DNA of 64,000 nucleotides from Clostridia bacterium (GTDB lineage Bacteria > Bacillota > Clostridia > Oscillospirales > Acutalibacteraceae): NCBI GenBank assembly GCA_017935265.1, contig JAGBHX010000062.1, forward strand, positions 306 through 64,305, in the 5' to 3' direction. Shown here one piece after another: positions 34,482 to 62,359 of the stretch (positions within the stretch are counted from its first letter, which is position 1; the number at the start of each line of letters is the position of its first letter). Made by a program: the position numbers and the translations under genes. The notes beneath the pieces are model-generated. The model ran no database searches. It was not told where the DNA came from and was given only the letters and a program-made list of their open reading frames with translations.

Positions 34482-35180
34482 ATGCAGAAAGAAAATGTTC
34501 ACAGCGGACACAGAAAGAGAATGAGGGAATCTTTTCTTAAAAGGGACTTCAATTCTATGCCCGAACACGAAATTCTTGAAATTTTGCTTTATTATGCTCA
34601 TCCGCGCAATGACACAAATGCCCTTGCCCACAGGCTGATCAATGAGTTCGGCAGTCTTGAAAATGTGCTGTCCGCTCCGTATGAGGAGCTTATAAAAATT
34701 GACGGTGTCGGTGAAAATGCAGCCGTGCTGATGATTTTGTTTTCCCGTCTTGCGGTGCGGTATGTGGCCGCAATTGACAGCGACGATGCGTATAAATCGG
34801 ACGACGAGATTGTTAAAATGGTTGTGGAAAGACTGGTAAATGAGCCAAAGGAAAAGGTTATTGCCGTTTTGCTTGATAAAAAGAAAAAGCTTCTCAACAT
34901 CACAGAGATTTCCACAGGGGGAATTGATGATGCCGCATTCAAGCCGAGAGCCTTGATTGAGCCGATTTTTCGATGCAGTGCAACAAGAGTTATCCTTGCT
35001 CACAATCACCCTCAGGGCTTTGCTGTGCCGTCGTCTGCGGATTGTGATATGACCGCCGATGTGAGGAAAATGCTCAGAACTCTGGAAATTTCTCTTGATG
35101 ACCATATCATTGTAGCGGGCAAGGATTGGTTTTCTATGAAAAACAGCAAGAAATACGCAGATATTTTTTATGAATATTAA
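34482..35180 (+). CDS. radC: RadC-family (JAB/MPN domain) DNA repair protein
   Basis: GHRKRMRE N-terminus, HhH region, JAMM motif ILAHNHPQG..PS..D. Confidence 0.9.
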   Translation: MQKENVHSGHRKRMRESFLKRDFNSMPEHEILEILLYYAHPRNDTNALAHRLINEFGSLENVLSAPYEELIKIDGVGENAAVLMILFSRLAVRYVAAIDSDDAYKSDDEIVKMVVERLVNEPKEKVIAVLLDKKKKLLNITEISTGGIDDAAFKPRALIEPIFRCSATRVILAHNHPQGFAVPSSADCDMTADVRKMLRTLEISLDDHIIVAGKDWFSMKNSKKYADIFYEY

Positions 35181-35238
35181 AAAAACAGTTGACAATTCTG
35201 AATAGTTGTGATATTATACTTTGGTAGTCGAGAGACGA

Positions 35239-35315
35239 GCGCTGCTAGCTCAGTTGGATAGAGTGTTTGGCTACGAACCAAAAGGTCAGGGGTTCGAATC
35301 CCTTGCAGCGCGCCA
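35239..35315 (+). tRNA. tRNA-Arg (anticodon ACG)
   Basis: Hand-folded cloverleaf: acceptor GCGCTGC/GCAGCGC, D arm GCTC..GAGT, anticodon stem TTTGG/CCAAA with loop CTACGAA, T arm AGGGG-TTCGAAT-CCCTT, encoded CCA. Confidence 0.9.
35270..35315 (+). repeat. attL core (46-bp direct repeat, part of the intact tRNA-Arg)
   Basis: GCTACGAACCAAAAGGTCAGGGGTTCGAATCCCTTGCAGCGCGCCA, identical to 43132-43177. Confidence 0.9.
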
Positions 35316-35317
35316 CG

Positions 35318-35356
35318 CCGAAAGTCGTTATTTATCAACGATTTTCGGCTTTTTCT
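35318..35356 (+). terminator. Element-borne terminator behind the regenerated tRNA-Arg
   Basis: GCCGAAA..TTTCGGC stem followed by T5. Confidence 0.6.
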
Positions 35357-35396
35357 TTGCCAAAAACAAGCTCGTGAAATTGCTTAAATTTTGCGT

Positions 35397-35450
35397 TTTG
35401 GTCTTTATTTGGTCTTTATTGCCTCAAAAACTTAATATTTTTGGTCTTTA
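35397..35450 (+). repeat. Three TTTGGTCTTTA direct repeats (candidate integrase arm-type sites, attL arm)
   Basis: Exact 11-mers at 35397, 35408 and 35440; the same 11-mer occurs three times at the other end of the element. Confidence 0.7.
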
Positions 35451-35494
35451 CATAGCAAAAGAGAGGTTCACTTTTTACGGTGTACCTCTCTTTT

Positions 35495-36874
35495 TTATGC
35501 CTGTTTTTTCTTTTTGGCTGTCAGAATGTTTTCAATTTCTTGTGCCGCTATTTCATCAGCCGTTCTGATAGCGTGAGCGTATATTTTCGCGGTGGTTGCA
35601 GGGCTTGCGTGTCCAAGCCTTTTAGAAACGGTGGTTAATGGCGTACCGTTGGCAATCAGCAAGGTCGCGTTTGTGTGCCTGAGGCTGTGCAACGTTACCT
35701 TTGGCAGATTGTTTCTTTCAACAAACTTACTGAACCATGCTGTCAGCGTGTCCGGGTGAATCGGTGTCCCGTCTGCTTTGGTAAATATAAAGCCTGTATT
35801 CTTCCGATAATCACCGAGCTTTAATATTTCCATTGCCTGATGTGTCTTGTACTCGCTCAATATCGTTATAACCGACTGTGGCACCTTCATAGTCCTTTGT
35901 GACGAGCTTGTTTTTGTGTCGCTTTCAAAGGTACCTTTGCCGGAAAGATATTGAATAGTTCGGTCTATTGTCAAAAGATTGTTTTCAAAGTCAATATCAC
36001 ACCATTTAAGCCCCAACACCTCAGCTCGGCGCAAGCCTAACAAAACCAACAGCTTTATTATTGTGCGGTATTTTATATCTTCCTTGTCGAGTAGCGCCAA
36101 AAGGTCAATAGACTGCTCGTCATCAAGTGTTGTCGGCTCTTTGTGCTGTACTTTAGGCGGTTTAACTCTTTCACAAGGGTTAGCGGTTATAATTTGCCAT
36201 TGTACGGCCGTGTGGAGTATCGAAGAAAGCAAAATGTGATGATGTTTTACCGTACGCCCTGATAGCGCGCCTTTGCTGATAGGCTCAAACAGCTTTGAAA
36301 GCGGCATTTTTAACGCTTCGGCAATCTTAACGGCGCTGTTATGTGATATATTATTCCCTTTGGTAACAGAATCGAGCGTGCAAACGCTGACCCCTGCAAG
36401 CTCGGCAAGTTTTACCTTTGTGAGCTGTCGGCTTTTTAAAAGCTCTTTAAAATCGAGCTTGCTTTTGTACTTTGTATCGGCTCTGATACCCTCTTTAGCA
36501 AGCTCGTCATACAAAGCAATGATATGATGTGGCTGAATACGGTCAAGCCTTAAATGTCCTATACCGTCATTTATACGAGGGTATAACGCTTTATATTGAG
36601 CAACTGTTTTCGGCTTGAGCTGTTTTTCTGCGTATTCCTCAAACCATTGCTCGGCAAAATCAGCGAGCTTGATATTGCTGTTTATAAAATGGCCGCTTTT
36701 AACCTTTTCTTCAAACAAGATAGCCTGAGTTTGAACCGCTTTGTCAATCTGCCTTTGTGTCATACCGGGCGCAGGCTTATAAGTCATTGAACGCGTTATC
36801 TGCTTGCCGCTCGCGTCGTAGCCCTCAGATACTCTGATACGGTAAGTATCACCGCGTTTAGTTATTGTCGGCAT
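35495..36874 (-). CDS. int: Tyrosine-type site-specific integrase
   Basis: 459 aa. N-terminal SAM-like/arm-binding region (TYRIRVSEGYDASGKQ). Catalytic residues in RRAE..LKW and HSLRHTNATLL..G......SKRLGHAS...T..IYAH. Adjacent to the tRNA att site. Confidence 0.9.
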   Translation of the reverse strand: MPTITKRGDTYRIRVSEGYDASGKQITRSMTYKPAPGMTQRQIDKAVQTQAILFEEKVKSGHFINSNIKLADFAEQWFEEYAEKQLKPKTVAQYKALYPRINDGIGHLRLDRIQPHHIIALYDELAKEGIRADTKYKSKLDFKELLKSRQLTKVKLAELAGVSVCTLDSVTKGNNISHNSAVKIAEALKMPLSKLFEPISKGALSGRTVKHHHILLSSILHTAVQWQIITANPCERVKPPKVQHKEPTTLDDEQSIDLLALLDKEDIKYRTIIKLLVLLGLRRAEVLGLKWCDIDFENNLLTIDRTIQYLSGKGTFESDTKTSSSQRTMKVPQSVITILSEYKTHQAMEILKLGDYRKNTGFIFTKADGTPIHPDTLTAWFSKFVERNNLPKVTLHSLRHTNATLLIANGTPLTTVSKRLGHASPATTAKIYAHAIRTADEIAAQEIENILTAKKKKQA

Positions 36875-36886
36875 TTTCCTAACTCC

Positions 36887-37555
36887 CTAATTGTCAAAAT
36901 AACGATAAATGTAAAAATGATTGCGCAAAAGTTCGTTGTCTAATTCTTGGTTCCTTGCTTTCTCGTCTTTGGCAAACAAATCAACTAATTCGTCAAATGC
37001 TTCTTGAAGATAGAAAAGGGCTAATTTACTGTTATCTTCTGCTTCGGAAAATCTTTGAGTGGCATTGTCTGAAATTTCATCGTTTTCACTATTTTTCAAA
37101 AATGTTTCCTTAGCCTCAATTGTTTCTTTTAATTTATTTTTGTAGCGTTGAGCAAAACCACATAAATCAAAGCTATAGCGTTGAATAAGCATATTTAAAA
37201 ACTCTTTGGAGATTGGCATCCACTCTGAATTAGATTCAAGAGCTGAATTGTGCAGAGCTTCAACAGCTTTTTCGTTCAATCCCGTATAATCACACACAAA
37301 TTGTGTATCTTTGTCTGTTGTTACATTTTCAGTTCTACCAACTAAGTAATCAAGTGAAACGTTGAAATATTCTGCAAGCCTCAAAAGTTTATCCGCATTT
37401 GGAATTGTTGAACCGTCACAATATTGTGAAACTGCTTGCCTTGATACACCAATTTCATCAGCTAATTGTTGTTTAGAAATGTTTTTTTGCTCTACCAAGT
37501 TGCGCAGGCGAGTAGCGAAAAGGCTTTCGAAGCCCAAAAAGCTTGCAATATCCAT
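36887..37555 (-). CDS. XRE/cI-like repressor with C-terminal helical domain
   Basis: HTH_3 motif QQLADEIGVSRQAVSQYCDG; divergent from a small HTH gene across an operator-rich spacer. Confidence 0.8.
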   Translation of the reverse strand: MDIASFLGFESLFATRLRNLVEQKNISKQQLADEIGVSRQAVSQYCDGSTIPNADKLLRLAEYFNVSLDYLVGRTENVTTDKDTQFVCDYTGLNEKAVEALHNSALESNSEWMPISKEFLNMLIQRYSFDLCGFAQRYKNKLKETIEAKETFLKNSENDEISDNATQRFSEAEDNSKLALFYLQEAFDELVDLFAKDEKARNQELDNELLRNHFYIYRYFDN

Positions 37556-37614
37556 AAAATTACTCCTTTGAACGTTAAATTCACTTGCGTTTTGATATAA
37601 TTAGATAAATTTGC

Positions 37615-37643
37615 TTGACAAAGCTCGTTTTACTTATTAAAAT
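37615..37643 (+). promoter_or_regulatory. Rightward early promoter of the element
   Basis: TTGACA - 17 nt - TAAAAT; followed by inverted repeat ATCATCA-n4-TGATGAT at 37659-37676. Confidence 0.55.
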
Positions 37644-37723
37644 AAAGATGTAAAGCAAATCATCACTATTGATGATGATAGCAAGTATTTTGACAAAAGT
37701 CAATAGAAAAGAGGTAAATTTTT

Positions 37724-37900
37724 ATGAGTAACCAAGAAATCAGAAGAACAGCAAAGGCAAATGATGTACCATTATGGCGAATAGCTGAAAAACTCGGCAT
37801 AAGTGAACCTACTATGTCCCGAAAACTCCGTCACGAGCTTGCAGAGCCTGAAAAGCAGAAGATTTTAGGCATTATTGCCGAGCTTGCTCAGGGTGCTTGA
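37724..37900 (+). CDS. Small Cro-like HTH protein (58 aa; below the cutoff of the supplied ORF track)
   Basis: ATG after AGAGG RBS. Translation MSNQEIRRTAKANDVPLWRIAEKLGISEPTMSRKLRHEL... contains an HTH. Divergent from the repressor. Confidence 0.7.
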   Translation: MSNQEIRRTAKANDVPLWRIAEKLGISEPTMSRKLRHELAEPEKQKILGIIAELAQGA

Positions 37901-37901
37901 T

Positions 37902-38144
37902 ATGTCAACACCGAGAATGAGAACAGCGCCTGAGGCTGTGGCAGAGCTTAAAGCCCTTGACCCCAACAGCGCGTTGAGTGTGCGAGCAGTGCGACAAATG
38001 ATAAACAGCGGTATTTTGCCTGCTGTTACGGTAGGTAATAAAAAGCTGATTAACCTCAACATTCTGCTTGAATATCTCAACGGCGAACGAGAGCTGACCC
38101 CCACAAGCTCGCCAGAATACGGCAAGATAAGGCGAATCGGTTAG
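37902..38144 (+). CDS. Excisionase/MerR-like small DNA-binding protein
   Basis: ATG 37902 lies 1 nt after the preceding stop. 80 aa with LSVRAVRQMINSGILPAVTVGNKKLI (HTH_17-like). Confidence 0.65.
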   Translation: MSTPRMRTAPEAVAELKALDPNSALSVRAVRQMINSGILPAVTVGNKKLINLNILLEYLNGERELTPTSSPEYGKIRRIG

Positions 38145-38157
38145 GGGGTGAATATCA

Positions 38158-38478
38158 TTGAGCAAGACAAATTGTGATGAAAGCATTTACAAGAGCGTTC
38201 TTTCCTGTTTCAGGTATGGTCGAGCTAATGCCATACATCAAAAGCAGTTGCAAAAATTGACAAGCCTCGATTCCCGACAGCTCAGGAAAATAATTGAACT
38301 AATACGGCGCAACGGTGTTTGTGTAGTATCTGATAACAAAGGGTATTATCTACCCGAAACGCGCGAAGAGCTTGAACAATACATAAGGCGCACTGAAAAA
38401 ATGGCGCGCAGTATATTCTTTACCCTGCAGACAGCAAAGAAAGCTTTGAAAAGCATTGATGAAAACTCCGACAAATAG
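38158..38478 (+). CDS. Hypothetical winged-helix-like protein
   Basis: 106-aa ORF (TTG start), QLQKLTSLDSRQLRKIIELIRRNGVCVVSD suggests a wHTH. Confidence 0.55.
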   Translation: MSKTNCDESIYKSVLSCFRYGRANAIHQKQLQKLTSLDSRQLRKIIELIRRNGVCVVSDNKGYYLPETREELEQYIRRTEKMARSIFFTLQTAKKALKSIDENSDK

Positions 38479-38601
38479 CACAGAACACAGATAAAAGGCA
38501 CAAAGTAACCCTTGCTTTGTGCCTTGAAAACTCAAAGCCCCTTGCGGCTTTTGGGGCTTGCATAGATAACTTAACTTTACGACGAAAGGAGCGCAGGCAA
38601 T

Positions 38602-39372
38602 GTGAGAGTTCACATAAGAGAGAAAATATATATCTGCGGTGACTTTATGCACGTTGACGCGTTCCCGGTATTCGCACCCTCAGGCAACAGAAGAAAGCGA
38701 AGATTTAAACCCACAAGCGAAACACAGAAGCTTTTAAACGATAAATACGCATTAAAGCACCTCGAAATGTTGCTTGAAACAAACTTCGACGATAACGATT
38801 ATCATATCAGATTGTCATACAACGACAAAAAACAACCAACATCAGACGAGCTTGCTATAAAAAACATATCAAACTACATCAGACGTTTAAAATATAAGTG
38901 TAACAAGCTCGGTTATTCTGCGCCTGTTGCCGTGTGGTGCACCGAAAAAGGCAAGAAGTACGGAAGATACCACCACCATTTAATTATAAAATGCGAGCTT
39001 GCTCGTGATGAAATAGAGCGAATGTGGGGCAAAGGTTATGCAAACTCACGCCGCCTGCAGTTCAATGAAAACGGCTTGACGGGACTATCGAAGTATTTAC
39101 CCAAACACCCGATAGGCGCACAGCGTTGGCACTCCACAAGAAACCTCAAAAAGCCTATTGTTCGTGAAAATGACAATATGAGCAAAAAGCAGTTTGAGCA
39201 GTTGTTTGACAGCCACGCAACTTATGATGTGTTTAATGCCCGGTACAAAGGTTATTTTGTCAGCCAGGTTGAAGCAAAATACAACGAAGTAACAGGCAAT
39301 AAATATCTGAGCTTCAAAATGTACCGCGCCGATTCTAAGTACGTCAATAAAACAATGCGCTTTATAGCTTAA
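38602..39372 (+). CDS. HUH-superfamily rolling-circle replication initiator / relaxase-like protein
   Basis: Motif 1 YHIRLSY, motif 2 RYHHHLII (HUH), motif 3 GLSKYLPKH (YxxK). GTG 38602 lies 10 nt after AAGGAG. Confidence 0.75.
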   Translation: MRVHIREKIYICGDFMHVDAFPVFAPSGNRRKRRFKPTSETQKLLNDKYALKHLEMLLETNFDDNDYHIRLSYNDKKQPTSDELAIKNISNYIRRLKYKCNKLGYSAPVAVWCTEKGKKYGRYHHHLIIKCELARDEIERMWGKGYANSRRLQFNENGLTGLSKYLPKHPIGAQRWHSTRNLKKPIVRENDNMSKKQFEQLFDSHATYDVFNARYKGYFVSQVEAKYNEVTGNKYLSFKMYRADSKYVNKTMRFIA

Positions 39373-39621
39373 ATTCCCAAGCGCTTGCGAATGTTGAGCA
39401 AATTTAACACGAGCTTGTAAGAGCGTTTTCAGAAATGTTCAGAAAACTCAAAAATATTTATGCTTCAAAGCCCCGAAAAACCTTGAAAAATCAACGAAAA
39501 CAAGCTCGTTTGATGTTTTTTAACTGAACATATAGAAAAAGACAGCCGACAAACAGCCGACCGCCTCAAAGTGGAGTATTAAATAGCAATGATATTTTAC
39601 AATGGGGTGAATGTTTTGTCA

Positions 39622-40404
39622 ATGAGTAATGAAGAGCTTGCAATCCGCATTAAAAACGGCTCAGCCGAGCTTGTGGGCGAATTATGGGAAAACACAAGTA
39701 AAATCCTTTACAAGCTCGCAAATGCTTATTATAGCCGCCTGCAGGCTGATTTTACGCGTTGCGGAGTAACGAGAGAAGATTTATACCAAGAGAGCTATAT
39801 TGCCTTTGTGGGTATGCTACAGGCTTTTGACGAAGAAAAAGGCTATAAGTTCATCACTTATGCTGAACTGCAGTTAAAAAACCGTGTAAATGAGCTTTTA
39901 GGCAAAAGAACAGGGGAAAATAACAAGCCTTTGGATAATGCAAGCTCGCTTGATGACGAGCTGAAAGGCTTTGAGGGTGAAGAACTGACCCTGCTTGACA
40001 CTATCCCTGATGAAACGGCACAGCAAAGCTACAAGGATATTGAGGCTGAAATATTCAACACAGAGCTTCACAATGCCCTTGAATCAGTAATGTCAAAGTA
40101 TCTTAATGCAGAGCAAAAAACAGTTATAAAGGCGCGTTTTTACGATAATTTAACTTTAAAACAAACAGGCGAGCTTGTGGGAGCAAACGAAAACAGAGCC
40201 GTTAAGGTAGAGCGTGACGGCCTGCGCACCTTGCAATGGCATAAAAGAGAGCTGAGCGCCTTTGCAGAGCATTATATAACAGATTTTGCATATCATTTTA
40301 CATCACAAGGCAGTTTCAAAAGCAAGCTCGGTAGTTCTCAGGAGCTTATTATAGAACGGCTCGATTTAAAAGAACGTGCCCGGCACAAAATGGCACAGTT
40401 TTAG
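39622..40404 (+). CDS. Sigma-70 family RNA polymerase sigma factor (element-encoded)
   Basis: Region 2-like EDLYQESYIAFV..L..FD...GYKF.TYA; region 4 HTH LTLKQTGELVGANENRAVKVERDGLRTL. The start is ambiguous (ORF opens at 39589). Confidence 0.75.
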   Translation: MSNEELAIRIKNGSAELVGELWENTSKILYKLANAYYSRLQADFTRCGVTREDLYQESYIAFVGMLQAFDEEKGYKFITYAELQLKNRVNELLGKRTGENNKPLDNASSLDDELKGFEGEELTLLDTIPDETAQQSYKDIEAEIFNTELHNALESVMSKYLNAEQKTVIKARFYDNLTLKQTGELVGANENRAVKVERDGLRTLQWHKRELSAFAEHYITDFAYHFTSQGSFKSKLGSSQELIIERLDLKERARHKMAQF

Positions 40405-40625
40405 CGTGTACCACTCTTAAAAAGTGTTGATAGTACAAGGAAAACACCGATTTTAAAAAAATGAGTGTGCCACAATAAAAAACAGCAAAATTCCAAGCGT
40501 TTGTGAATATTAAATAATACACGAGCTTGCTATAAAACCTGATAAAACCTGACACCCTCGCGCGCACGCGCGCGAAGCTCTGCACTGCACCGAAACAAAG
40601 AAAAGCCCCGAAACGGAGCTTTTAA

Positions 40626-40790
40626 TCAGTCTTTGGTTATTATAACATCACCGCTTGCAGTTATGCAAACACTCCCTGTATCGTCAAATTCGTTTGCAGG
40701 GTCGAGGAATGACAGCTCAGACGTGAGCCGTTCAACGCATTTACGGCTCAGAGGTTCGGCTGTGGGTCTGATAACGGTTGTTTGTGGCAT
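40626..40790 (-). CDS. Unannotated 54-aa ORF coupled to the upstream 90-aa ORF
   Basis: ATG 40790 lies 6 nt after the stop of the 90-aa ORF, preceded by AAGGAAG. Followed by terminator AGCTCCG-TTT-CGGGGCT plus T-run. Translation MPQTTVIRPTAEPLSRKCVERLTSELSFLDPANEFDDTGSVCITASGDVIITKD. Confidence 0.5.
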   Translation of the reverse strand: MPQTTVIRPTAEPLSRKCVERLTSELSFLDPANEFDDTGSVCITASGDVIITKD

Positions 40791-40796
40791 TATGTT

Positions 40797-41069
40797 TCAC
40801 TTCCTTGATGCAGTTCCGTACACTTCGGTGTCAATGGTATCTATAATATCACTCAGAACTAAAAACGCACTATTAAGCAATGATATGGTAATACTGTTCC
40901 TATTTAAAGCAAACTGCAGTTCACTAAGTTGTACCAAATCTTTATAGTGCACTTTGTTGGGTAACTTTTCAATCTCTTCTAAGCCAACCTGAAAAAGGTC
41001 TTTTGCTCGGCTCAGCTCAATGCTCAATTCTTCTAATTCAATGGGTGTTTTTACAATGGTATTCGTCAT
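40797..41069 (-). CDS. Hypothetical 90-aa helical protein
   Basis: ORF with RBS AAGGAAAGGA upstream on the minus strand; no recognisable motif. Confidence 0.55.
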   Translation of the reverse strand: MTNTIVKTPIELEELSIELSRAKDLFQVGLEEIEKLPNKVHYKDLVQLSELQFALNRNSITISLLNSAFLVLSDIIDTIDTEVYGTASRK

Positions 41070-41110
41070 TAAAATCGTTCCTTTCCTTAGTTTGCAAGGA
41101 TATTATATCA

Positions 41111-41191
41111 CTATTGATAGCAATATACAATTGACAAAAGCACTGAATATTTATAACGATATTTGTGCAATTTGTATATTGCTATCAATAG
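41111..41191. promoter_or_regulatory. Divergent promoter/operator region bracketed by a perfect 20-bp inverted repeat
   Basis: CTATTGATAGCAATATACAA (41111-41130) and its exact reverse complement (41172-41191). An extended -10 TGCTATAAT at 41200-41208 lies just downstream. Confidence 0.7.
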
Positions 41192-41265
41192 ACTAAATGT
41201 GCTATAATGTGTATGCTGGGAAAAGTATAAACTTTGAATTTGCGCCCAACAGTTAAGGTGATAAA

Positions 41266-41475
41266 ATGACAGACAAAAAAAGAGGATATTCACAAGCTCA
41301 AAACAAGGCAACACAAAAATATATTAAAAACAATTATGACAGTGTGATGATTCGATTACCCAAAGGCAAAAAAGAAGCGATAAAGAACCACGCAGAAAGT
41401 CAGGGTGAGAGCCTGAACGGCTTCATCAACCGCGCCATAGACGAAACAATGCAGCGAGATAAAGAGAATAGTTAA
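41266..41475 (+). CDS. Ribbon-helix-helix (Arc/CopG-like) DNA-binding protein
   Basis: 69 aa, IRLPKGKKEAIKNHAESQGESLNGFINRAIDE, typical of an RHH beta-strand plus two helices. Confidence 0.7.
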   Translation: MTDKKRGYSQAQNKATQKYIKNNYDSVMIRLPKGKKEAIKNHAESQGESLNGFINRAIDETMQRDKENS

Positions 41476-41500
41476 ATAAGAGAAAGGGATTGACAAGGAT

Positions 41501-41728
41501 ATGAAAGGAAGAAGACCGGCATATTTCAGAGCTTCCAAACTTGAAGATTTTGGCGATATAATGACACCGCAAGACGTTGCGTTGTATCTGAAAGTTACTG
41601 ATAATTGCGTAACTACTCATATTCGCAAAGGTGATTTAAAGGGATTTAAGGTTGGAAATAATTGGCGAATTAAAAAGATTGATTTAATTGAGTTTATTAA
41701 AGCAAACGAAAACAAATGCAGTTTATAG
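41501..41728 (+). CDS. Excisionase-family helix-turn-helix protein
   Basis: MTPQDVALYLKVTDNCVTTHIRKGDLKGFKVGNNWRIKKIDLIEFI matches the HTH_17/Xis pattern. Confidence 0.7.
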   Translation: MKGRRPAYFRASKLEDFGDIMTPQDVALYLKVTDNCVTTHIRKGDLKGFKVGNNWRIKKIDLIEFIKANENKCSL

Positions 41729-41822
41729 TTGCATAAAGTGTCGTAACTCTTCATAAACTGTCATATTGTTTCATAAATTAACGTAAATGTATATAAATTA
41801 ACATAAATTTATATAAAAATGA

Positions 41823-41925
41823 TTGACATTTTGAGATTTTTCGCATACAATAATTGTGACAGAGCCTCTCACGCTTAGGCGCACTTAGGTGCGAACTGCG
41901 GACCAGGAGAGGACTTTTTATTTTA
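41823..41925 (+). promoter_or_regulatory. Promoter plus structured leader/terminator-like hairpin upstream of the Abi gene
   Basis: TTGACA (41823) - 17 nt - TACAAT (41846). Then CCTCTC (41865-41870) ... GAGAGG (41907-41912) enclosing CGCAC/GTGCG, followed by ACTTTTTATTTTA immediately before the RBS. Confidence 0.6.
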
Positions 41926-41937
41926 TAGGTGATTAAA

Positions 41938-42804
41938 ATGGCAGACGTTAAAGAATTTTTAACTTATGAAGAACAGCTCGAACATTTGAAAGGGGCAGGG
42001 CTACACATAGAGAACGACGATGTCGCAAAATATATATTATCAAAAGTGAATTATTATCGTTTGATAAATGCCTACTCGCTTGGCTTGTATGCCGAAAGAG
42101 AACCTCACGACAAGTATAAACCAGGTATAACATTTTATCAAATATACGACCTCTACAAGTTTGATTTATCATTGAGGCACATAATGTCAGAGCTCCTTGA
42201 AGAATTTGAGATACTATTTAGAACGAAGCTTGCATATTATATAGGCGAAAAATACGGACCCTTAGGATATTTAGATTCTTTGATTTTCAAAAATGAAGAG
42301 TATCACAATTCTTTTATAGAGGATTTGAACCGCGAAAAAGTTAGACAAAAAAATTCACCTATAATCAAACATCACAATGCACATTATGACGGGAATTTGC
42401 CAATATGGGTGCTTGTAGAGGTTGTTTCATTTGGCGTAATTTCAAAGCTTTATAGTAATATGAAGTTGGAAGACCAAAAGAACATAGCAAAAGAAATAGG
42501 ATTAAAACCCAAGTATCTTAAAAGTTGGTTGCGTTCTTTTGTTGAGATTAGAAATGTGTGCGCTCATTACGGTAGATTATACAATAAGATACTAATATCA
42601 CCTCCGCAGTTGTATAACGATGTTGATTTTGATAACACAAGGATATTTGCAGTGTTGTATGTGTTAAAACGATTTGCCAGCGAAAGGCTATGGACAACAC
42701 AATTAGTTGACCTTAAATTAGCTATTACTGAGCATAAATCTATCGAACTTAGCAAAATAGGATTTCCTGAAAACTGGGAAAAGCTCTTAGGATTTCCAAT
42801 ATAA
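41938..42804 (+). CDS. Abi_2 family (AbiD/AbiF-like) abortive-infection protein
   Basis: YEEQLEHLK, NYYRLINAYS, P.W...E..SFG..SKLY, and VEIRNVCAHYGRLYN motifs typical of the Abi-like (Pfam Abi_2) family. ATG 41938 follows AGGTGA. Confidence 0.8.
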   Translation: MADVKEFLTYEEQLEHLKGAGLHIENDDVAKYILSKVNYYRLINAYSLGLYAEREPHDKYKPGITFYQIYDLYKFDLSLRHIMSELLEEFEILFRTKLAYYIGEKYGPLGYLDSLIFKNEEYHNSFIEDLNREKVRQKNSPIIKHHNAHYDGNLPIWVLVEVVSFGVISKLYSNMKLEDQKNIAKEIGLKPKYLKSWLRSFVEIRNVCAHYGRLYNKILISPPQLYNDVDFDNTRIFAVLYVLKRFASERLWTTQLVDLKLAITEHKSIELSKIGFPENWEKLLGFPI

Positions 42805-42993
42805 AATAAAGTTATAACGACTGAAACCGCCTTGAGCAATCGGGGCGGTTGTTTTTATATAACAGACGAGCTTGCTATATATTCCCCCCTACCTGCGAGG
42901 GTGAAAAAAAGAGCTTAAATCTCCACCCACAGCCCACCTACATTCACACCGAACCACGCGCGCGTAGATTTTTTGGAAAAAAGCAAGCTCGAT

Positions 42994-43035
42994 TTTGGTC
43001 TTTATTTGGTCTTTATCGCGGTGATTTGGTCTTTA
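42994..43035 (+). repeat. Three TTTGGTCTTTA direct repeats (candidate arm-type sites, attR arm)
   Basis: Exact 11-mers at 42994, 43005 and 43025. Confidence 0.7.
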
Positions 43036-43131
43036 CTTTCGTGAAACGATATGAAATGAGCGTGTGCAGAAAATGGCTTAAAATCAACGAAAATGCAAGC
43101 TCGTGAAAAGTTATGAAACGAAAATTTTAAA

Positions 43132-43177
43132 GCTACGAACCAAAAGGTCAGGGGTTCGAATCCCTTGCAGCGCGCCA
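43132..43177 (+). repeat. attR core (46-bp partial tRNA-Arg copy)
   Basis: Identical to 35270-35315; lacks the tRNA 5' half. Confidence 0.9.
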
Positions 43178-43179
43178 AG

Positions 43180-43217
43180 AACAGCACATCCGCATTTGCG
43201 TGTGTGCTGTTTTTTTG
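43180..43217 (+). terminator. Displaced ancestral terminator of tRNA-Arg
   Basis: AACAGCACA ... TGTGCTGTT stem followed by T-run, directly after the attR tRNA fragment. Confidence 0.7.
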
Positions 43218-62284: not shown

Positions 62285-62359
62285 TGGAGCTGGAGATGGG
62301 ATTTGAACCCACGGCCTATTGATTACGAATCAATTGCGCTACCACTGCGCCACTCCAGC
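62285..62359 (-). tRNA. tRNA-Thr (anticodon CGU)
   Basis: Reverse complement folds as acceptor GCTGGAG/CTCCAGC, D arm GCGC..GCGC, anticodon stem ATTGA/TCAAT with loop TTCGTAA, T arm GTGGG-TTCAAAT-CCCAT, encoded CCA. Confidence 0.9.

Follow-up and report, generated by a model that had tools for sequence, protein, structure and literature searches.

A phage-related integrative island in a tRNA-Arg gene of gut Acutalibacteraceae, with a predicted defence cargo and a densely repeated 8-bp word

What kind of genetic element occupies the tRNA-Arg(ACG) gene in this 64-kb stretch of DNA from a gut bacterium of the Acutalibacteraceae (Clostridia bacterium, contig JAGBHX010000062.1; the whole stretch is called the window below), and how does it pass from one genome to another? 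A first-pass annotation, made from the letters alone, had described a small island here with an integrase, a rolling-circle replication initiator (Rep), a sigma factor and an abortive-infection (Abi) gene. Following this element through related contigs (labelled L001-L050), we found it to be a real, recently mobile and discrete insertion. The reading that we favour, with a probability of roughly 55%, is that it is a helper-dependent phage satellite resembling the phage-inducible chromosomal minimalist islands (PICMI) and the virion-encapsidated integrative mobile elements (VEIME), built as a phage early region without the late genes. Its most unusual feature, missed in the first-pass annotation and the one that lifts it above an ordinary hitch-hiking element, is the 8-bp word CGAGCKTG, which recurs throughout its backbone.

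A discrete, recently mobile insertion in tRNA-Arg(ACG)

The integration target is a tRNA-Arg(ACG) gene at 35239-35315 (+ strand), identified with ARAGORN and found as the same tRNA in contigs that lack the island; its 3' part is rebuilt by the element. A repeat search of the window showed that the 3' end of this tRNA (35270-35315, the attL core) recurs with 100% identity at 43132-43177 (the attR core), both copies being 46 nt long and on the + strand. Their start-to-start distance is 7862 bp, and thus the 7.86-kb insertion bounded by a perfect 46-bp repeat stands as first described. Just inside attL, an intrinsic terminator brought by the element (35317-35349, +; a 13-bp stem and a T-run, −18.9 kcal/mol, z = −6.1), which has an equivalent hairpin in relatives, substitutes for the tRNA's own. 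The original terminator was moved 7.86 kb by the insertion and now follows attR (43179-43217, +; a hairpin and then a U-run, −20.5 kcal/mol, z = −4.9), an assignment already suggested from the sequence and now borne out by an identical hairpin directly after the tRNA in the contigs without the island. Because of the repeat and the terminator supplied at attL, the interrupted tRNA gene retains a complete 3' end and a terminator.

A tyrosine integrase of 459 aa (35495-36874, −; PF00589 5.8e-26, PF14659, HTH_3 4e-4, phrog_1 1e-70) lies just inside attL, and each arm of the element carries three predicted integrase arm-type sites, as had also been noted. These are + strand copies of TTTGGTCTTTA at 35397, 35408 and 35440 in the left arm (35397-35450) and at 42994, 43005 and 43025 in the right arm (42994-43035), and just one more copy occurs in the 64-kb window. 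The layout of a tandem pair plus one spaced copy in both arms is kept in relatives, in which the sequence of the repeat co-varies with that of the integrase (TTTGGGGTTTA in L016 and L050, TTTGGTGTTTA in L013). In composition, too, the element is distinct, with a GC content of 39.3% (35.9% in the cargo part, about a third of it) against 44.2% in the flanks. With its tyrosine integrase just inside repeats of the tRNA 3' end, it is a site-specific integrative element of a tRNA gene.

We obtained same-species contigs by exact-sequence look-up of the upstream RadC protein. Two of them, the metagenome contigs L003 and L005, have an empty site at which RadC, tRNA-Arg, terminator and MatE are contiguous. 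Their sequences align as window positions 35159-35315 joined to 43178 onward, without a scar, and so equal the in-silico join 35315|43178 that an uninterrupted locus should show. Presence of the island therefore varies within one species. When one genome of each GTDB species was scanned, the island also turned up in two other species of Acutalibacteraceae (L018 and L019), in the same tRNA, bounded by the identical 46-bp core and with the same arm repeats. In aligned segments these two elements are 90-96% identical to the window element, whereas the host flanks diverge, and modules have been exchanged: the module of the cI-like repressor is replaced in both and the cargo in L018. Near-identical elements with swapped modules in the same tRNA of other species indicate recent horizontal movement.

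These findings bear on a different reading, namely that the island is what remains of a mini-prophage, decaying or domesticated, or else an integrative rolling-circle plasmid, and that it has lost intercellular transfer and is kept by its toxin or Abi cargo and its tRNA-site integrase. The presence/absence variation within one species, the scar-free empty site and the close identity of copies in three species with diverging flanks all argue against it; taken with the points raised below, we regard it as improbable.

The surroundings of the island are those of a chromosome, with housekeeping and similar genes on the flanks (YqfD, a tRNA methyltransferase, a PurF-like protein, a GH25 lysozyme with dockerin, PheST, CdsA, RarA, RF-2 and others). 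Genes for capsid, terminase, coupling protein or a type IV secretion system (T4SS), which the first-pass annotation had not seen in the element, are absent from the 64-kb window and from 10 kb on either side in related contigs, and neither the element nor the window has the tail, lysis or relaxase genes that would mark a prophage or an integrative and conjugative element (ICE). Because no structural or conjugation genes lie around it and the flanks are contiguous in the empty site, the island is not part of a larger prophage or ICE. The existence of empty sites and the absence of such genes nearby thus speak against both a fixed, dead island and a fragment of something larger, and the original interpretation, a small satellite-like or mobilizable island with an anti-phage cargo, gains support from the empty sites and the cross-species copies.

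The tRNA-Arg locus is a hot spot at which other DNA has been inserted as well. DUF2691-like genes (~160-167 aa) lie between the tRNA or attR and MatE in L001 (11188-11667, an extra gene at this place), L027 (11602-12793) and L026 (11581-12084), and one genome with such a gene at the locus is without the island. In L002/L027 (GCA_045580385.1, JAZNNS010000018.1) an element of ~25 kb is inserted in the island's integrase gene, of which a 196-aa stump is left; the insert encodes TnpV, a KAP NTPase, a MobV relaxase, ParB_N and a large serine recombinase, so that the tRNA-Arg gene holds a nested, 'matryoshka'-type composite. Short Logan contigs from various samples (L006-L010) end ~95 nt past RadC, at the tRNA/att site, and these breaks fit mixed occupied and empty alleles, or differing inserts, in those populations.

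Backbone genes, exchangeable modules and phage ancestry

Profile searches upheld the gene list of the first-pass annotation, with two starts corrected, as given below. In the integrase the catalytic motifs HxxR and H...Y can be read in the sequence. Between its N-terminal SAM-like and catalytic domains, an insert at residues ~143-194 is a helix-turn-helix (HTH) domain of Cro/C1 type (HTH_3/HTH_26 matches) that is kept across the family, and such an additional DNA-binding domain inside a tyrosine integrase is unusual. Next to the integrase lies a cI/Stl-like repressor of 222 aa with an N-terminal HTH (36887-37555, −; HTH_3 7e-16, Phage_CI_repr 1e-8), in which profile searches found no S24 protease (self-cleavage) domain. 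The cI module (36887-37820) is replaced by unrelated sequence in L018 and L019, while the DNA on both sides of it is 94-96% identical. Such swapping of an immunity-type repressor between near-identical elements may be likened to that of Stl in the Staphylococcus aureus pathogenicity islands (SaPIs). SaPI Stl is derepressed by a specific partner protein, and by analogy an exchangeable repressor without protease suggests derepression by a specific partner rather than through the SOS response.

A 58-aa Cro-like HTH protein (37724-37900, +; phrog_17740 5e-12), present in all family members, opens a rightward operon, and divergent promoter-like sites (37615-37643, +; 37703-37675, −) separate it from the cI-like gene. 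It is followed by an 80-aa Xis/MerR-like protein (37902-38144, +; HTH_17-like, 5.7e-5 and below the cut-off, TIGR01764 4e-3), which was found in all six lineages compared and whose start, by family alignment, is most likely 37902 and not the 37875 first given. A 106-aa protein of phrog_2113, a putative winged-helix protein in the first-pass annotation, comes next (38158-38478, +) and is missing from L015, L016 and L050. The element thus has an integrase, a divergent repressor/activator pair and a xis gene.

The Rep protein (256 aa; 38602-39372, +; PF23343 6e-9, phrog_3584 3.5e-61) had been called an HUH initiator, and both its conserved HHH and Tyr motifs and its predicted fold sustain that call. 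Across 37 homologues H124, H126 and Y165 are invariant and H125 and K168 nearly so (the HHH motif, and the Tyr in YxxK). Rep has no sequence relatives in PDB. Its AlphaFold2 model (pLDDT 89.3) has the predicted fold of an HUH endonuclease, for which Foldseek returned the Vientovirus Rep endonuclease domain (probability 1.00, TM 0.61), circovirus Rep (0.97-0.99), NS1 of the parvovirus B19 (0.96) and RepB of pMV158 (0.75). From the motifs and the model we infer that Rep replicates the element by rolling circle, with the rep-sigma spacer and the tract at 40522-40580 as candidate origins.

Downstream of rep lies the gene for a sigma-70 family factor of 271 aa with regions 2 and 4 and a C-terminal extension (39589-40404, +; PF04542, PF04545, phrog_351). 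It scores 63.8 bits against TIGR02937 (cut-off 42.9), matches sigma structures in PDB and has homologues, 32-34% identical, in phage contigs of 91-112 kb. After the sigma gene comes an alternating purine-pyrimidine GC tract, CGCGCGCACGCGCGCG (40559-40574), which, within an element of ~40% GC, may serve as an origin or as a protein site or may be prone to form Z-DNA. L015 (12039 and 12248), L013 (5178 and 5603) and L011 (11728 and 12153) have similar tracts; a regular-expression search gave no perfectly alternating tract in L016 and L050, of which L050 has a similar imperfect one.

The right end begins with two small open reading frames (ORFs) of 54 and 90 aa without a family match (40626-41069, −), where relatives have two to four small leftward genes of varied number and size. 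Between the 90-aa ORF and the next gene is a palindrome with a perfect 20-bp stem (41111-41191; −33.1 kcal/mol, z = −8.6) that overlaps divergent promoter-like sites (41179-41208, +; 41137-41110, −) and is probably an operator between the leftward ORFs and a rightward operon. That operon starts with a ribbon-helix-helix (RHH) protein of Arc/CopG type (41266-41475, +; Arc 5.7e-4, phrog_13890 1.5e-19), which heads the cargo slot and whose phrog_13890 counterpart also precedes a PBECR4 gene in L018. An excisionase-family HTH_17 protein of 75 aa follows (41501-41728, +; PF12728 1.9e-12; TIGR01764 33.5 bits, cut-off 28.8), and then the cargo gene itself (41938-42804, +; PF07751 4e-51, phrog_2158 7e-69, PADLOC AbiD 4.9e-96) and a terminator (42825-42850, +). 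The cargo protein matches its family over the full length (residues 2-184 of 184 in PF07751, 174 bits; PADLOC AbiD 320 bits) and is accordingly placed in the AbiD/Abi_2 family, with a predicted anti-phage role. Its start is most likely 41938, the second of the corrected starts, because the sole product on record has 288 aa.

All Rep homologues above ~50% identity are encoded in elements of ~8 kb with the same layout: integrase, cI-like repressor, 58-aa protein, ~80-aa protein, sometimes a ~105-aa protein, Rep, sigma factor, two to four small leftward genes, RHH protein and a variable effector. The effector is AbiD in the window, L019/L026 and L027, the PBECR4 nuclease in L018, L016, L050 and L013, Fic in L013 and ParE in L011/L012. 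Members of this family, which is small and was found in Acutalibacteraceae (Oscillospirales, Clostridia), are inserted in tRNA-Arg (L015) or tRNA-Thr (L011/L012), overall in tRNA-Arg(ACG) or tRNA-Thr(CGT), and the contigs L016, L050 and L013 end in a matching tRNA-Thr 3' segment. The window has its own tRNA-Thr(CGT) near its end (62285-62359, −), the sequence of which differs from the tRNA-Thr(CGT) site of the island's relatives and which is unoccupied, since its 3' end has no repeat in the window.

The family data weigh further on decay or domestication. Pairing of RHH proteins with addiction-type cargo (ParE, Fic, PBECR4) would suit an element that merely persists in its host, as would the disrupted integrase of one copy. 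All backbone ORFs of the window element are intact, however, including the catalytic motifs of the integrase and Rep, and the ~8-kb layout persists, at several tRNA sites, in lineages with protein identities as low as 48-59%, which argues against a remnant.

Where did this backbone come from? Nine of the 12 element proteins searched match a PHROG family. Rep homologues of 28-40% identity are encoded by tailed temperate phages and prophages, in the early part of genomes that also have terminase, portal and capsid genes. Among these are the Clostridium phages PhiS63, phiSM101 and Saumur, Latilactobacillus phages and the Faecalibacterium phage FP_Toutatis, as well as metagenomic prophages in which genes for terminase, portal, capsid and baseplate are present. 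PhiS63 has the integrase first, then repressors, Rep and a putative sigma factor, and packaging genes after these. The compact combination of rolling-circle Rep, sigma factor and Abi gene had been thought unusual at first, a view that did not survive this comparison: the pairing of Rep with a sigma factor is the normal early-region layout of temperate Firmicute phages such as PhiS63 and is therefore phage heritage. Because the homologues of Rep and of the sigma factor sit in early regions of tailed phages, we describe the element as a phage early region without late genes, the late region having been either lost by the island's ancestor or never present.

The same proteins are central to a second alternative, in which conjugation moves the island as an integrative mobilizable element (IME). 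Here the HUH Rep would be a non-canonical relaxase acting at an element oriT or double-strand origin, the nucleoprotein would be passed to an FtsK-like (TcpA-type) coupling protein and the T4SS of a co-resident ICE, and Rep would also maintain the circle. There is precedent in 21 streptococcal IMEs with PHA00330-type rolling-circle replication initiators as putative relaxases, of which a minority have no coupling protein, and rolling-circle plasmid Reps reportedly can act as relaxases for ICEBs1. The element's want of packaging genes would fit as well, as would the MobV-relaxase element in the same tRNA-Arg site of L002/L027, because of which we conclude that conjugative and mobilizable elements do visit this locus. 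On the other side, the element encodes no coupling protein or canonical relaxase and has no recognisable oriT; the nearest homologues of Rep outside the family belong to tailed phages and phage-plasmids; the Rep matches in PLSDB are only six, all of ~34-40 kb and predicted to be non-mobilizable; most backbone proteins match PHROG; and the cI/Cro-type switch and the late-type sigma factor are phage features. We give conjugative mobilization a lower probability than the satellite reading, of which it is the main rival, and a higher one than decay to a remnant.

A dense and selected 8-bp word

CGAGCKTG occurs 24 times in the window element between 35367 and 43103 (23 copies with T and one with G at position 6), in equal numbers on the two strands (12 + and 12 −) and at a density of about one per 330 bp, where 0.2 copies are expected. 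The copies start at 35367, 35903, 36373, 36397, 36454, 36499, 36664, 37834, 37879, 38104, 38847, 38904, 38994, 39410, 39501, 39666, 39711, 39941, 40170, 40323, 40522, 42867, 42984 and 43096. For the T form, CGAGCTTG, the window as a whole has 31 copies against 1.8 expected, 23 of them inside the element (12 + and 11 −), in which one-mismatch variants are rare. A logo built from 95 instances in four lineages shows the 8-mer, a pyrimidine at position 9, weak AT-richness upstream and nothing more. In no family member is any other 8-mer as common as this word: with the two variants counted together, L015, L016, L050 and L013 have 21-29 copies each and the truncated L011 contig has 16, and counting the T form, L018 has 25 and L019 has 27. 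True phages that carry homologues of Rep or the sigma factor show no enrichment. We found no mention of the word in the literature searched, and we know of no element-wide recognition tag in phage satellites or IMEs.

Several features indicate that the copies are selected. Sixteen of the 23 T-form copies lie in coding sequence, where shuffling of synonymous codons within genes gives 0.77 ± 0.86 copies; 13 of these 16 are read in the frame that yields E-L-[A/V] or, on the opposite strand, K-L-[A/G/D]. The positions turn over between lineages, and even amino-acid changes create the word (DELA in Rep here, DEQA or DEIA in relatives). Density in the backbone is equal in intergenic and coding DNA, and the exchangeable cI and cargo modules hold no copy (P = 7e-7 under uniformity). 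Between L016 and L050, which are 78% identical in nucleotide sequence overall, ten homologous sites changed from T to G at position 6 and none in reverse, a concerted switch of 'dialect', with totals of 20 T and 7 G in L016 and 7 T and 22 G in L050. This pattern is the signature of a word that is selected for its number and read by a specific factor, as uptake sequences and Chi are, but the present word is restricted to a mobile element. Ongoing selection on the word and on the arm sites is a further point against a mere remnant.

The word also has a fixed place near the ends. In the right arm of every lineage examined (window, L016, L050 and L013) one copy stands 1-6 nt upstream of the tandem arm-type sites (42984-42991 in the window, directly before the first), and in L016 and L050 a further copy adjoins the third left-arm site. 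The reader of the word may thus take part in the intasome. We propose, tentatively and at somewhat less than even odds, that the 8-mer is a private tag through which some machine acting in trans selects, protects or moves the DNA of the element, and that the T/G dialects track this reader. Candidate readers are a packaging enzyme of the helper, a translocase, a recombination nuclease, the element's small HTH proteins and the HTH insert of the integrase. When residues of the integrase, the 58-aa and 80-aa proteins, Rep and the sigma factor were compared with the dialects, the sigma factor had the most separating columns; it is also the most divergent of these proteins, and only two dialect switches are available.

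Other uses of the word were considered. A promoter function was rejected, since no −10 or −35 partner stands at a fixed distance in the 95 instances and the word is found within genes and on either strand. CRAGCTYG, a palindromic site of restriction type, was likewise rejected, its symmetric forms CGAGCTCG and CAAGCTTG being absent from the element. Some copies resemble CTTG|ATA, and a Rep nick site was judged unlikely because 24 sites on two strands would fragment the replicon. A scan of IMG/VR for a triple 8-mer pattern gave ten high-GC contigs without integrase, Rep or sigma homology, which we take as chance matches. If the island were mobilized as an IME, the word could serve to load an FtsK/TraB-like translocase, by analogy with the 8-bp FtsK-orienting (KOPS), SpoIIIE (SRS) and TraB (TRS) recognition words; its balanced orientation is unsuited to a polar translocase signal. 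The FtsK-orienting function was also considered for the host itself, in which all eight copies lie on the + strand, but gene orientation, Markov expectation, word rank and codon context account for them.

A further possibility, confined to the word, is that CGAGCKTG is a host Chi-like sequence for AddAB. Dense copies in two orientations would protect rolling-circle tails or injected linear concatemers against degradation, aid RecA-dependent recircularisation and limit the acquisition of CRISPR spacers. The word is asymmetric and 8 bp long, as Chi is, and its number rather than its position is selected. Rolling-circle replicons are reportedly sensitive to RecBCD/AddAB unless they carry Chi; the lactococcal Chi is GCGCGTG, which the G variant resembles (GAGCGTG). 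However, host flanks show no word-specific selection: one copy is found there per ~7 kb, the word is 63rd in rank among 863 frequent words, a maximal-order Markov model expects 5.4 copies where eight are observed, the copies follow gene orientation, and 56 kb of host DNA contain no copy of the G variant. A general codon-context bias accounts for the excess of GAG-CTT-G. The host evidence on the word covers ~95 kb and is not a strong exclusion of Chi, and we hold the Chi reading to be quite unlikely.

The codon-context bias is strong and was seen in ~86 kb of coding sequence from the window and related flanks. Before codons that start with C, GAG is used 184 times and GAA 78 times, whereas before A the counts are 81 and 584; CTT, the favoured Leu codon, makes up 501 of 799 before G. 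This bias by itself suffices to make GAG-CTT-G common in host genes.

A proposed helper-dependent life cycle and its likeness to known systems

If the island is a phage satellite, its cycle might run as follows. The tyrosine integrase, bound to the three arm-type sites of each arm, would integrate the circle and rebuild the tRNA, for which the element gives a new terminator. The cI/Stl-like repressor, lacking a self-cleavage domain, would silence the rightward operon until it is removed, probably by a protein of the helper phage, whereupon the Cro-like, Xis-like, Rep and sigma proteins would be made. The integrase and Xis would excise the circle, the HUH Rep would replicate it by rolling circle, and the resulting concatemers would be packaged into full-size capsids of the helper, as in PICMI and VEIME satellites. 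The phage-type sigma factor would probably activate late-type promoters, either the element's own or those of the helper. The slot at the right end, with its RHH gene and effector, would hold exchangeable toxin or Abi genes that pay the host for carriage or stabilise the element, and the ~24 copies of CGAGCKTG, selected in the backbone and arms, would be a cis-acting part of the cycle. That transfer must use a helper follows from the lack of capsid, terminase, relaxase-accessory, coupling-protein and T4SS genes in the element.

Some observations weigh against this proposal. The searches yielded no excised circle, no attP junction and no copy derived from virions, a result that decay to a remnant would also predict, and all contigs with the exact integrase or AbiD protein show the integrated form. 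The family is absent from phage and plasmid collections, in which whole-element megablast gave no hit, and from IMG/VR, in which a search with the integrase protein gave no relatives; no helper phage was identified; and the element lacks terS, a gene for packaging redirection and any recognisable pac or cos site. If PF23343, the Rep family, equals PHA00330, an equivalence assumed from the family description, it also includes the putative relaxase of a class of streptococcal IMEs, which makes conjugative mobilization a live alternative. Some copies are dead, since the integrase of L027 is truncated by another mobile element.

A pattern search for the attP junction in Joint Genome Institute (JGI) metagenomes and IMG/VR gave no match; it is uninformative, because the attR control pattern gave none either and those collections are without the element altogether. 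The L016 contig has a 30-nt terminal overlap, which an assembly loop through the direct repeat would also explain. Two small 'Bacteriophage sp.' records with Rep homologues, MT837378 and MT836934, were considered as excised forms and rejected, since both are fragments of unrelated phages, high in GC and lacking the 8-mer.

On the satellite reading, the island would be a new lineage or variant of a phage-derived, helper-dependent island type with defence cargo, a classification that we think somewhat better than an even bet. It would add a Gram-positive lineage of gut anaerobes to the growing set of minimalist hitcher elements that carry genes for defence and toxins from species to species, and would suggest that such elements can arise directly from a phage early region comprising an integrase, a repressor, an HUH Rep and a late sigma factor. 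With empty sites, copies in three species and swapped immunity and cargo modules, it offers a clean natural system for questions of helper choice. If the 8-mer is a tag for packaging, transfer or protection, it would explain how an element without packaging genes is selected for transfer; it would also be a sequence signature for finding related elements in metagenomes, and the T/G dialect switch would give a handle on the protein that reads it.

How does the island compare with systems already described? In gene order it resembles the early region of temperate Firmicute siphophages (PhiS63, phiSM101 and Latilactobacillus phages), which share the series of integrase, repressor, Cro-like protein, Rep and sigma-like late regulator and whose Rep is 34-38% identical (28-40% over all phage homologues). 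These phages differ in being 30-55 kb long, in continuing with packaging, head, tail and lysis genes, and in having no enrichment of the 8-mer.

The streptococcal IMEs for which a PHA00330-type rolling-circle initiator has been proposed to serve both replication and transfer (Coluzzi 2017, PMC5357655; Guedon 2017, PMC5704250) resemble the island in being small Firmicute elements with a tyrosine integrase, a similar Rep and, often, a site in a tRNA or ribosomal-protein gene. In contrast to the island, in which Pfam and PHROG searches found no FtsK/TcpA-like gene, most of them carry the TcpA coupling protein, and the likeness in Rep presumes that PF23343 is PHA00330, as the family description suggests.

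Phage-inducible chromosomal islands (PICIs), the SaPIs included, have an integrase, divergent Stl-like and Str-like regulators, xis, a replication module and terminal accessory genes in common with the island, as well as a repressor that lacks a self-cleavage domain and varies between otherwise similar islands. They differ in their size of 10-15 kb, their pri-rep (primase/helicase) gene with an iteron origin and their terS and/or capsid-size genes; no element ORF matched a primase or helicase domain or a PICI packaging gene (terS, capsid-size redirection) in Pfam or PHROG.

The proposed lifestyle has a parallel in PICMI (PMC10803314) and VEIME (PMC9618062), satellites of small size without capsid genes, for which rolling-circle replication and the filling of full-size helper capsids with concatemers are documented. 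Like the island, they are small (~5-17 kb) integrative elements and combine an integrase, regulators, a replication gene and anti-phage cargo with a lack of capsid or remodelling genes. PICMI integrate next to fis, carry AlpA and a primase, reside in Gram-negative marine Vibrionaceae and use virulent helpers, whereas the island has a tRNA site, a cI/Cro-type switch, an HUH Rep and a sigma factor and lives in an anaerobic Firmicute. Packaging and helper use are proposed for the island, and no hyper-abundant 8-mer was noticed in the consulted passages of the PICMI and VEIME papers. The island may work like PICMI, but it has neither the alpA/int/primase core nor the fis site by which membership is defined and is not one of them.

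For the 8-mer itself, the nearest likenesses are DNA uptake and uptake signal sequences (DUS/USS), Chi and the translocase words KOPS, SRS and TRS, all of them short exact words, found on both strands or with a strand skew, that are accommodated in coding DNA through codon and amino-acid choice and for which number matters over position; the DUS of Neisseriaceae even have lineage 'dialects'. Host machinery reads those words, which are spread over whole chromosomes. CGAGCKTG, in contrast, is denser than DUS/USS at about one per 330 bp and marks only an 8-kb element in a host that is not enriched for it. If the proposed tag function is true, it would be the mobile-element equivalent of DNA uptake sequences or Chi.

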